In this document: positions 15,728 to 18,728 of the stretch, in pieces
Numbering within the stretch: position 1 is the stretch's first letter
Layout: each line of letters opens with the position of its first letter
DNA from: an uncultured bacterium
GTDB lineage: Bacteria; Fidelibacterota; UBA2242
Direction of reading: 5' to 3'
Assembly: GCA_964588795.1 (NCBI GenBank)
Contig: CAZPQN010000003.1
Coordinates: forward strand, 18,639-82,638
DNA length: 64,000 bases
Notes under the pieces: model-generated
Seen by the model: only the letters and a program-made list of their open reading frames with translations
Told to the model about the DNA's origin: nothing
Database searches by the model: none
Translations under genes and position numbers: made by a program

Positions 15728-18571
15728 TCACAAGGCAATTCCGGCCAAAACCAGCTCCATTCGGGTGTCGCGTTCATGTACACGGTAGGTGTAGCGTACT
15801 CCACCGGTCAAATCAACCGGCATGGTAAAAAGATTAAAATCGCACTGCAATTCAATACCGAACGCGTCGTAAAGCACAGACCGTGATCCTGTTTTCCCAG
15901 ATGCCCGGTCGCCGAACAGATTGCTCCAGATACGTTTACAATTAAACAGGGCACCCAGGGCGAAATCCGGATAAAACAGCGGAAAGGCATAATCCAACGA
16001 AGCGCGTCGGAAATGATCGTAGTAGGTATAGGCATAACCGCGAACAAACGATACCGGACTTACAAAACGATAATTGGTTGGATCCTGAATCTCGACCGCG
16101 CCTCCGATCACCAGGCTATGATGGCGCGCTAGCCCCGGGAAATAGAGATTACCCTCGCCGACTAACTGCCGACCCTGATAATCCATCTTAAACGGCGTAT
16201 GCCGCAATGTTAATTGCCCATCAATACCGGCAACCGGTCGTAAATCGCGCAGGGCTTTACTCCGATACTTCTGGTAGACGACCTGGTAATGGAACGGGCA
16301 GAAACTGCCGTCATTATTCACGTAGCTTTTAGGTTGTTCTTTTCCTTTCAGCGAGGTAATGCCAAAACCGGCGTTGAGCTCCAGCCGTCGCGAATAGACT
16401 CCGCTCGAAAGATCACAGGGAAGCCGCAGATTCAATGCCAGGTTACGCTCTGTCCAGACATCGGTCACCGTTCGCCTCCCATTATTGATCAGGGCAAATC
16501 TTCTTCCGCAACCACTGCTGACGTCAACAATCGGACGGATACCGGCATAACTGCAGGTGGCATTGACGAACAGCGCTTTCTCGCTGGCGTAATAGAGCAG
16601 GGCTGGACTGAATTGAAAGGTATTTAAAAGATCAGTAGAAAAACAACCGGCCGCTAAAAATCCCGAGACCGGAATGAAGTACCAGCTGTGAATATTGATC
16701 AGGTGGGCGCGGGGACTGTATTCTGTCGAGGGATAAATTATATCAGGTATTTTCTCCGGCATTAGCGGATTTTGCGGATTTTCTTGCTCCATAATAGGTG
16801 CAAAATAATCAATCGGACGCCGGGCAACCGTTTCCAACGCTCGCCAGTTGACCGTATCCAACGTCGTGCATTTGATGTCCAATCCTTTAACCGCGTAATC
16901 GCTGTAAACCAACTGGTTCCCTTTTACCATCGGCGAAAATGCCCCAAAACGACTGGAAATTACCTGATACCGACGACCGTTCATCAGGTCGAGGGCATAG
17001 ATATTGTCAATCCCGGAGTACGAAGAGCTGTAGAAAATATAGTCGCCTGCCTGGATAGGATTGGATACATTTTCGTCACTTTCCGGCAGGAGGTCGCGGA
17101 ACTCTCCGCTGTGACAATCGAGCCTAGTCAGTGTCTTACCATTAAATTGCTGGCGGGTCATAATTAAAAACTTCCCGTCCGGAGACCATGACGGTTCCTT
17201 AAGAAAAGAATTGGCAGGTGCCGGAAAGCGCTTGATTGTTGCCCCGGTTCGAGGATCAAGTAAAACTATCGCACAACGACGTTCCGGTGTGAATTCAATC
17301 GCGGCGATATTTTTCCCGTCTGGCGCGGGTGCCGGGGCAAAGTACCGTCCGCCGCTGGTAATTTCCTGCACACGTCCGGTCTGCAGGTCACAGACCGCGA
17401 CATCCGAGGCTATTTGACTTCCCCAAAACCTGTCGGTGTTGTAGACACTCCAGGTCGCTAACTGTCCATTGATGGCGACCCGCCCCGGTCCTGATACAAA
17501 AGTCAGGGGTTTTTCCCGCCCGTCAGCCTGAATTCGAACCAGCGTCGGAATATCGGCCATCCCGGAAATGGTGACCCAGAGTGCACCGTCCGCAGACCAT
17601 TGTGGCCAGCGGTACTGGGTCCAGACTTTTTTCGGTTTCTTATTCAGCGGCGTAACTTCTTCGAAGATCAAATTAGCCGATTGCCATTGCCAAAGAGAGT
17701 CCAGCTCATTCATCGTCGCCTGATAGATCTGGCGTGAATTTTTCCCGATAATACGCTTTGCCATCCGGCTGAAAGCAAAAGGACTGTAACTACGCTGGGC
17801 AGAGCGAGTTATGATCCGCGCCCAGGCATCAGCACCATAGCATCGCCGGACATGCGTCGTCATCAAGTATCCTAAGGTATAATGATTCGGGTAATAGTCG
17901 CGATAAGAGTTTAAGAAAGCCTTGTAATACGAATAACGGAATCCCGAAAGCTCTACCGCTCTTACGCCAATATCAAATTCCGGTAAACGGCCACGACCAC
18001 TGCGAGAGAGCGCGGTTTCGATTCCCACCGCGTCACCTTCCCAGAACCAGGCCGGAGTCTGCCAGAAACTGAGCACGCGTCCGACGTCGCCAAATAAAAA
18101 ACTCGCCAGGCGAGTGAAACCCCGCTCATGATAATCGAACTGTGCCATGTGCCGCCCTTCATGCACCGCGAGCAGGTTGTACCATTCTTCCGTGCCGGAG
18201 AAATTATCCTGCGGAGGCGTGGCAAACCACTCACTTTTCCGCGGCGCCAGACTGACATAGCCATTGGCGACGGCGCTCCGATTAGAAAGCACGACCGGCC
18301 ACCGGCGACTTTCGACTCGCAGGGTCTTGCGCAAAGGTTGATGCAAATATTCGAGAGTGTTGGCGACCCGCTGGGCTTCGGATTCGATTTCAGCCGGAAA
18401 AACTATTGCATAATGCTGAGTTTGCAGTTGACGCCAGTGAATGCCCGGCGGTGGCTGATTCGAGTCGAGCATCTGCGCGTATACCAGAGCAGAAAGATAG
18501 TGCATAGCGAAAATGGTATAGCCGATGTTCTTAAAAAAGACGTTGGCCGGCGGTTTCCAGGAATTTTTCAT
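15728..18571 (-). CDS. large secreted protein (947 aa): N-terminal HExxH zincin-like domain, central TolB/PD40-like beta-propeller repeats, beta-strand-rich C-terminal region
   Basis: Signal-like MHYLSALVYAQ; AVHEGRHMAQFDY (HExxH); repeated ...SPDGK.../...APDGKNIA... propeller-like blades; Tyr/Gly-rich C-terminus. Confidence 0.5.
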   Translation of the reverse strand: MKNSWKPPANVFFKNIGYTIFAMHYLSALVYAQMLDSNQPPPGIHWRQLQTQHYAIVFPAEIESEAQRVANTLEYLHQPLRKTLRVESRRWPVVLSNRSAVANGYVSLAPRKSEWFATPPQDNFSGTEEWYNLLAVHEGRHMAQFDYHERGFTRLASFLFGDVGRVLSFWQTPAWFWEGDAVGIETALSRSGRGRLPEFDIGVRAVELSGFRYSYYKAFLNSYRDYYPNHYTLGYLMTTHVRRCYGADAWARIITRSAQRSYSPFAFSRMAKRIIGKNSRQIYQATMNELDSLWQWQSANLIFEEVTPLNKKPKKVWTQYRWPQWSADGALWVTISGMADIPTLVRIQADGREKPLTFVSGPGRVAINGQLATWSVYNTDRFWGSQIASDVAVCDLQTGRVQEITSGGRYFAPAPAPDGKNIAAIEFTPERRCAIVLLDPRTGATIKRFPAPANSFLKEPSWSPDGKFLIMTRQQFNGKTLTRLDCHSGEFRDLLPESDENVSNPIQAGDYIFYSSSYSGIDNIYALDLMNGRRYQVISSRFGAFSPMVKGNQLVYSDYAVKGLDIKCTTLDTVNWRALETVARRPIDYFAPIMEQENPQNPLMPEKIPDIIYPSTEYSPRAHLINIHSWYFIPVSGFLAAGCFSTDLLNTFQFSPALLYYASEKALFVNATCSYAGIRPIVDVSSGCGRRFALINNGRRTVTDVWTERNLALNLRLPCDLSSGVYSRRLELNAGFGITSLKGKEQPKSYVNNDGSFCPFHYQVVYQKYRSKALRDLRPVAGIDGQLTLRHTPFKMDYQGRQLVGEGNLYFPGLARHHSLVIGGAVEIQDPTNYRFVSPVSFVRGYAYTYYDHFRRASLDYAFPLFYPDFALGALFNCKRIWSNLFGDRASGKTGSRSVLYDAFGIELQCDFNLFTMPVDLTGGVRYTYRVHERDTRMELVLAGIAL

Positions 18572-18580
18572 ATAATGATC

Positions 18581-18612
18581 GTCAAGTGCAAATTTAACAG
18601 GAGTAAATTACT
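18581..18612. promoter_or_regulatory. possible weak operator-like half sites (GTAATTTAC / AAATTTGCAC) upstream of the 947-aa gene
   Basis: Partial resemblance to the arms of the TetR palindrome GTAAATTTGACTGA; 10-40 nt upstream of the 947-aa gene start (18571), within the 157-nt gap after the OMP gene. Confidence 0.2.
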
Positions 18613-18728
18613 GGATGAACCAGGAAAATCAAAAATGGGTCGCGTACCCTCTGGTGACATCTCATGGAGATTTAACGATTTCAGCGTCCCCTGTGGTCAA
18701 TTCTGCAAAAGTGGCTCGGCGGCGGAGC

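Follow-up and report, generated by a model that had tools for sequence, protein, structure and literature searches.

A predicted zinc peptidase and a TolB-like propeller joined to an Omp85-type outer-membrane barrel in a protein encoded beside an exporter operon

What is encoded by a 947-codon gene that carries an HExxH motif and lies directly behind a set of exporter genes, and does its product belong to that exporter? The gene is part of the 64,000-nucleotide stretch of DNA that we analysed (the window). Omp85 proteins serve universally as the insertases and translocases of outer membranes, in bacteria as well as in organelles, and nearly all knowledge of them comes from POTRA-bearing members. 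We describe here a large family whose Omp85-type barrel bears a predicted intact zinc peptidase and a propeller in POTRA's stead, and which offers a clean test of the roles of Omp85 barrels besides folding or translocating proteins.

Domain architecture of the 947-residue protein

The first-pass annotation had proposed the domain order signal peptide, HExxH domain, propeller and beta-rich C terminus, and this order is correct in both the sequence and an AlphaFold2 model of the whole protein (pLDDT 89.9, pTM 0.88), the latter comprising an N-domain of a beta-sheet plus helical part, a propeller and 16 long strands. Full-length homologues reach E values of 0 to 1e-181, and together with the AlphaFold2 scores they place the features of the protein, given below, far beyond chance.

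15728..18571, minus strand: complete open reading frame, ATG to TAA (947 aa plus stop)
18476..18571, minus strand: Sec signal peptide, residues 1-32 (model helix 9-32; hydrophobic stretch ending in Ala-Gln in homologues)
17636..18475, minus strand: gluzincin-fold metallopeptidase domain (N-domain), residues 33-312
18149..18163, minus strand: HEGRH, residues 137-141, on the active-site helix 130-148 (two predicted zinc-binding His and a predicted catalytic Glu)
18017..18049, minus strand: WFWEGDAVGIE, the "glutamate helix", residues 175-185, on helix 174-188
16847..17635, minus strand: six-bladed PD40/TolB-like beta-propeller, residues 313-575
16694..16846, minus strand: linker, residues 576-626, with a conserved Y589-x-x-P-x-x-x-Q596-E597 helix
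15731..16693, minus strand: Omp85-type 16-stranded outer-membrane beta-barrel, residues 627-947
16034..16048, minus strand: F-V-R-G-Y, residues 842-846, in loop 6 (strands 11-12), the Omp85 "(V/I)RG(F/Y)" motif
15896..15916, minus strand: F-G-D-R-A-S-G, residues 886-892, in strand 13, the Omp85 "(F/G)xDxG" motif

The signal peptide (MKNSW...ALVYA/QMLD) is probably cleaved between Ala32 and Gln33 (VYA/Q), judging from the alignment, in which the signal peptides of homologues likewise end in Ala-Gln and Gln33 is 92% conserved. A lipoprotein was rejected because no Cys follows the signal peptide, and a T9SS substrate because the C terminus is a barrel and not a T9SS C-terminal sorting domain.

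In the model, the N-domain assumes a thermolysin-like fold, with a beta-sheet subdomain and a helical subdomain, and AVHEGRHMAQFDY occupies residues 135-147. His137, Glu138 and Arg140 are present in all 121 aligned sequences and His141 in 119 (98%). Trp175, Glu178, Gly179, Asp180, Ala181 and Glu185 are likewise found in 121 of 121 sequences; Glu178 is the presumed third zinc ligand, and Glu185 is a second invariant glutamate on the same helix, 174-188. The HExxH motif thus appears to form a zincin site in a gluzincin fold, predicted to bind zinc and to be catalytic. The earlier description of the domain as zincin-like is supported by this modelled fold and by the conserved glutamate on the next long helix, and the test of whether HEGRH lies outside a zincin fold came out in favour of the zincin fold.

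M1 aminopeptidases show an HExxH-x18-E spacing, a GxMEN exopeptidase motif and a "WLNEGFAxYxE" motif. The N-domain shares with the M1, M9 and M30 gluzincins (clan MA) the thermolysin-like fold and the HExxH helix followed by a glutamate on the next helix, and its W-x-x-E-G-x-A-x-x-x-E resembles the M1 "WLNEGFAxYxE". However, 36 residues instead of the 18 of M1 separate HExxH from Glu178, due to a helical insertion (residues 151-171), and the domain has no conserved GxMEN-type glutamate. The positional counterpart of that glutamate, Glu114, is present in only 76 of the 121 sequences (63%), so the predicted activity may be that of an exo- or of an endopeptidase. Given the spacing, the unmet GxMEN motif and the lack of a Peptidase_M1 Pfam match, we rejected a canonical M1 aminopeptidase. 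The domain further differs from M1, M9 and M30 in going unmatched in Pfam, NCBIfam and PDB sequence searches, and we know of no invariant Arg within HExRH in any of these three families.

The PD40/TolB-type blades named in the first-pass annotation are present, as seen from the blade motifs APAPDGK (residues 412-418) and SWSPDGK (461-467), a Pfam PD40 match (E 3.4e-6) and a match to the TIGR TolB propeller model TIGR02800 over residues 388-577, which scores 39 bits where the cut-off is 343. PDB sequence matches of the propeller cover residues 391-561 only. TolB of the Tol-Pal system, which has a six-bladed PD40 propeller as well, matches this domain best, by structure as well as by sequence, but the protein has two extra large domains and lacks the TolB N-terminal domain and a tol-pal context. 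TolB proper was therefore rejected: the propeller alone matches, the N-terminal alpha/beta TolA-binding domain and a tol-pal cluster are missing, and no tol or pal gene is found in the neighbourhoods inspected.

Outside the propeller, database searches returned very little. Pfam and NCBIfam, searched up to E = 10 with the whole protein and with its isolated N- and C-terminal parts, gave PD40/TolB propeller matches only, and among 36 family members Pfam recognised no peptidase, Omp85 or POTRA family. PDB sequence searches with the single sequence and the whole-protein profile returned propellers only, that with the N-domain profile returned zero matches, and the list from a Foldseek search of the whole model against the PDB was swamped by propellers, so that the other domains gained nothing from it. 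Because Pfam detects neither peptidase nor barrel, members are named "TolB-like translocation protein", "PD40 domain-containing" or "hypothetical" in databases; the first of these, the name of many members, is misleading. Correct annotation alone would alter the reading of thousands of genes.

The 51-residue linker consists of two short helices and one 3-residue strand in the model, and Glu597 within it is invariant. No POTRA domain was found in the modelled linker or by Pfam in the 36 members at E <= 1. POTRA-less subfamilies are recognised inside the Omp85/TpsB superfamily (PMC4104836).

The C terminus is all-beta in the AlphaFold2 model, in which the beta-rich region of the earlier description is indeed a membrane beta-barrel, although about 320 aa long (residues 627-942) and not 250. 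The loop-6 "(V/I)RG(F/Y)" motif, defined from BamA and FhaC, lies between strands 819-831 and 853-866 of the model, with Arg844 in 111, Gly845 in 117 and Tyr846 in 113 of the 121 sequences; it is degenerate (AKSY) in the syntenic orthologue. Strand 13 spans residues 876-894, where the family consensus reads FYDYGxG: Phe886 is present in 120 of 121 sequences and Asp888 in 115, while position 890 is Gly in 87 and Ala in the query. Both motifs are functionally important in BamA and TamA. A C-terminal Phe, as in outer-membrane beta-signals, ends 68 of the 121 aligned sequences, the last residue of the query being Leu rather than Phe. PF01103 (Omp85) and PF03865 (ShlB) did not match the barrel alone at E <= 10 or the 36 members at E <= 1, and a PDB profile search of the protein found no Omp85 protein; fold plus motifs are what point to Omp85 homology of the barrel. 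It would be an elaborate anchor, and the retained loop-6 and strand-13 motifs suggest that it does more than tether.

Family extent and relation to WD40-like Omp85 proteins

The protein is conserved over its whole length in at least 640 homologues, which come from Bacteroidota, Marinimicrobia, Calditrichota, Ignavibacteria, Gemmatimonadota, Aminicenantes and Poribacteria, and the gene is present in at least 597 species representatives. A profile search with the N-domain gave 5948 representatives at E <= 1e-3 (50% identity representatives, ∼6000). Among the top 150 of these matches, most proteins are 900-1000 aa long and nearly all have the domain at residues ∼20-300, which suggests that the peptidase domain is tied to the peptidase-propeller-barrel architecture. 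The flanks hold no second copy of any of the domains of the protein, and a barrel HMM run against all open reading frames of 86 fetched loci and the window found no second Omp85-like protein.

Although the first-pass annotation could name no family for this domain order, the architecture is, over its full length, that of the "WD40-like Omp85" subfamily described by Heinz and Lithgow (2014, Front Microbiol 5:370; PMC4104836, Table S3). It was thus catalogued in 2014 and is not a new kind of system. The annotation had also allowed for an end-to-end match to a well-characterised family, of which the end-to-end match holds, but to a subfamily that is catalogued rather than well characterised and was still called uncharacterised in 2024 (PMC11116518). 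For the ∼95 proteins of Table S3, Phyre2 matched the BamA/TamA barrel (4k3b, 4c00), TolB (2w8b, 2ivz) and, as "aminopeptidase", 1z5h F3, 4kxd, 3qnf ERAP1, 4ar1/4ar9 collagenase and 4fgm, peptidase matches that fall in M1/M9 (PMC4104836). Our family has the same order of M1/M9-like peptidase, TolB-like propeller and Omp85 barrel, shares taxa with the subfamily (Cytophagales, Ignavibacteria, Caldithrix and Gemmatimonas) and gives the same incidental Pfam matches (PF07676, PF00930 and PF10647). PF01103, in contrast, is found in about a third of the proteins in the 2014 domain table and in none of our 36 members, even at E <= 1. The text of that paper treats only the propeller ("BamA-BamB fusion"), and the peptidase domain appears in the supplement alone (PMC4104836).

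The accession lists suggest how the two are related. The Spirosoma linguale orthologue D2QQT4 (Slin_1741) is absent from every cluster of Table S1, whereas another protein of S. linguale, D2QR40, is listed. D2QR40 is probably a paralogue of D2QQT4, and the 947-aa family therefore probably a paralogous branch overlooked by the 2014 search. Cluster look-ups of ten homologues yielded no old accessions that would link them to the WD40-like cluster of 2014, the listed Caldithrix proteins were not among the results of a search started from a Calditrichaceae member, and tblastn against plasmids for an annotated paralogue gave no match.

A barrel that retains the loop-6 RGY and strand-13 FxDxG motifs, joined to a TolB/BamB-like propeller, could also be read as a non-proteolytic outer-membrane assembly factor, a "BamA-BamB fusion" whose propeller and peptidase-like domain act as docking or chaperone platforms. 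The process served would be the biogenesis of outer-membrane proteins or lipoproteins, as suggested for WD40-Omp85 proteins (PMC4104836). We consider this improbable, given that all catalytic and metal-binding gluzincin residues are invariant across phyla and that the N-domain is the most conserved part of the protein (mean identity of 51% versus 36% for the barrel, with 62 positions conserved at 90% or more), which is unexpected for a mere docking module. Such a factor would, moreover, have no POTRA to receive substrates, and its gene shows no bam, tam or tol-pal linkage in the loci inspected.

Gene neighbourhood and promoter-like box

The gene follows genes for a TetR-regulated exporter (an HpnN/MMPL-like RND protein, a LolA-like protein and a 492-aa protein), and two further features lie upstream of its start codon.

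18572..18728, minus strand: intergenic gap upstream, 157 nt, with a TAnnTTTG box inside
18589-18596, minus strand: TAAATTTG, a Bacteroidetes-type -7 box (TAnnTTTG), its first base 25 nt before the ATG

The length given earlier for the gap, 157 nt, is exact, but the weak operator-like half sites described in it could not be recovered: the gap contains neither inverted nor direct repeats of >=8 nt (6-nt exact seeds). The gap shows no significant fold either (z -0.61). TAnnTTTG boxes are present upstream of the TetR gene and of the 947-aa gene and upstream of none of the genes between them.

The first-pass annotation had placed the gene last in the exporter operon and considered its product a processing enzyme for the exported cargo. 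An accessory or processing enzyme cotranscribed with the exporter would agree with the shared orientation, the distance of 157 nt, a simple scan of the gap that revealed no strong intrinsic terminator, and the same gene order in one related genome. However, in that syntenic relative the 492-aa gene is separated from this gene by a BglII-like endonuclease/methyltransferase pair in the opposite orientation, and adjacency to the exporter genes is limited to 2 of the 86 fetched loci, of the same contig type and of one lineage, that of the window. In the other 84 loci, the 8-10 kb around the gene, as far as the contig extends, contain no homologue of the RND, LolA-like or 492-aa gene. Between the window and the relative, the exporter genes are 76-80% identical and the 947-aa gene only 45% (barrel 35% versus N-domain 59%). 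The surroundings of the gene are different in Aminicenantes, Adhaeribacter and another genome, none of its neighbours is conserved in all of the loci compared, and the gene reads as monocistronic in the loci inspected. The gene is thus independent of the neighbouring exporter operon; with linkage not conserved and a promoter-like box of its own, a role in processing the cargo of the exporter is highly improbable.

Topology, proposed function and comparison with known systems

The reading that we favour as the probable one is a stand-alone, outer-membrane-anchored, periplasm-facing zinc peptidase that is not an exporter component. If loop 6, between strands 11 and 12, faces outwards, as it does in all Omp85 proteins, then strand 1 would start at the periplasmic face, and the peptidase and six-bladed propeller would be suspended in the periplasm, where BamA and TamA have their POTRA domains. 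Zinc would be bound through His137, His141 and Glu178, with Glu138 as the general base. The propeller, packed on the peptidase in a rigid assembly, may serve as a substrate filter or binding platform, so that the active site would be reached only by unfolded chains or oligopeptides, as in other propeller-bearing peptidases. Either envelope proteins misassembled at the outer membrane or oligopeptides taken up by import are the candidate substrates.

This strand parity speaks against the surface anchoring suggested in the first-pass annotation, which would require the barrel to export its own peptidase-propeller passenger, the displayed protease then degrading extracellular proteins for nutrition. 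Self-export of a passenger was once proposed for type Vd secretion, and many of the organisms that carry the family are protein degraders, which counts in favour of such a protease. The barrel is also the fastest-evolving part, which fits selection from outside, although its own loops explain this equally well. Surface translocation has been raised as an option for enzyme-bearing Omp85 proteins, and listed accessions that share an organism prefix suggest several paralogues per genome (PMC4104836), a number that suits nutrient acquisition better than housekeeping. Even so, we regard a surface protease as unlikely: the N terminus of strand 1 is expected in the periplasm, there is no POTRA domain, the cargo of ∼545 residues would include a folded six-bladed propeller, the barrel lumen is occupied by the conserved loop 6, and the pTM of 0.88 indicates that the domains are packed on the barrel in a fixed arrangement. 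PlpD, the model case of self-export, keeps its enzyme domain in the periplasm, as found experimentally (PMC11116518), and is a precedent for a periplasmic orientation of the N-terminal domains. For the same lack of POTRA and with loop 6 in place, an autotransporter or type Vd passenger is unlikely.

The family offers clear targets for mutagenesis (Glu138, His137, His141, Glu178, Arg844 and Asp888) and culturable hosts, namely, Spirosoma linguale (Slin_1741), Hymenobacter and Adhaeribacter.

Among known systems, BamA and TamA share with the family the loop-6 RGY and strand-13 FxDxG motifs and a hydrophobic or aromatic C-terminal end. The protein differs from them in that an enzyme and a propeller replace POTRA, that no sequence model matches it and that its gene lies apart from bam or tam genes. 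PlpD likewise joins an Omp85 barrel to an N-terminal hydrolase, periplasmic as proposed here (PMC11116518), but the hydrolase is a patatin lipase and not a zinc peptidase, and PlpD, a proteobacterial protein that forms dimers, has one POTRA and no propeller.

A more speculative suggestion, which we hold to be doubtful, is a self-contained quality-control machine made of a POTRA-less BamA-like barrel, a propeller and a zinc peptidase. The barrel would sense stalled or misfolded outer-membrane protein substrates via its lateral seam or periplasmic face, and the propeller would pass them to the covalently attached peptidase. One polypeptide would then fuse a BamA-type recognition module with a BepA-type protease, and FCB-group phyla would replace with it functions that are split between separate proteins in Proteobacteria. 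Under this quality-control reading, the protein would resemble BepA, in which a zinc peptidase and a protein-interaction domain likewise act together beside an Omp85 barrel, on the inner face of the outer membrane. BepA, however, is an M48 peptidase with TPR instead of a propeller, and it is soluble and docks on BamA, whereas here the peptidase is fused to the barrel.

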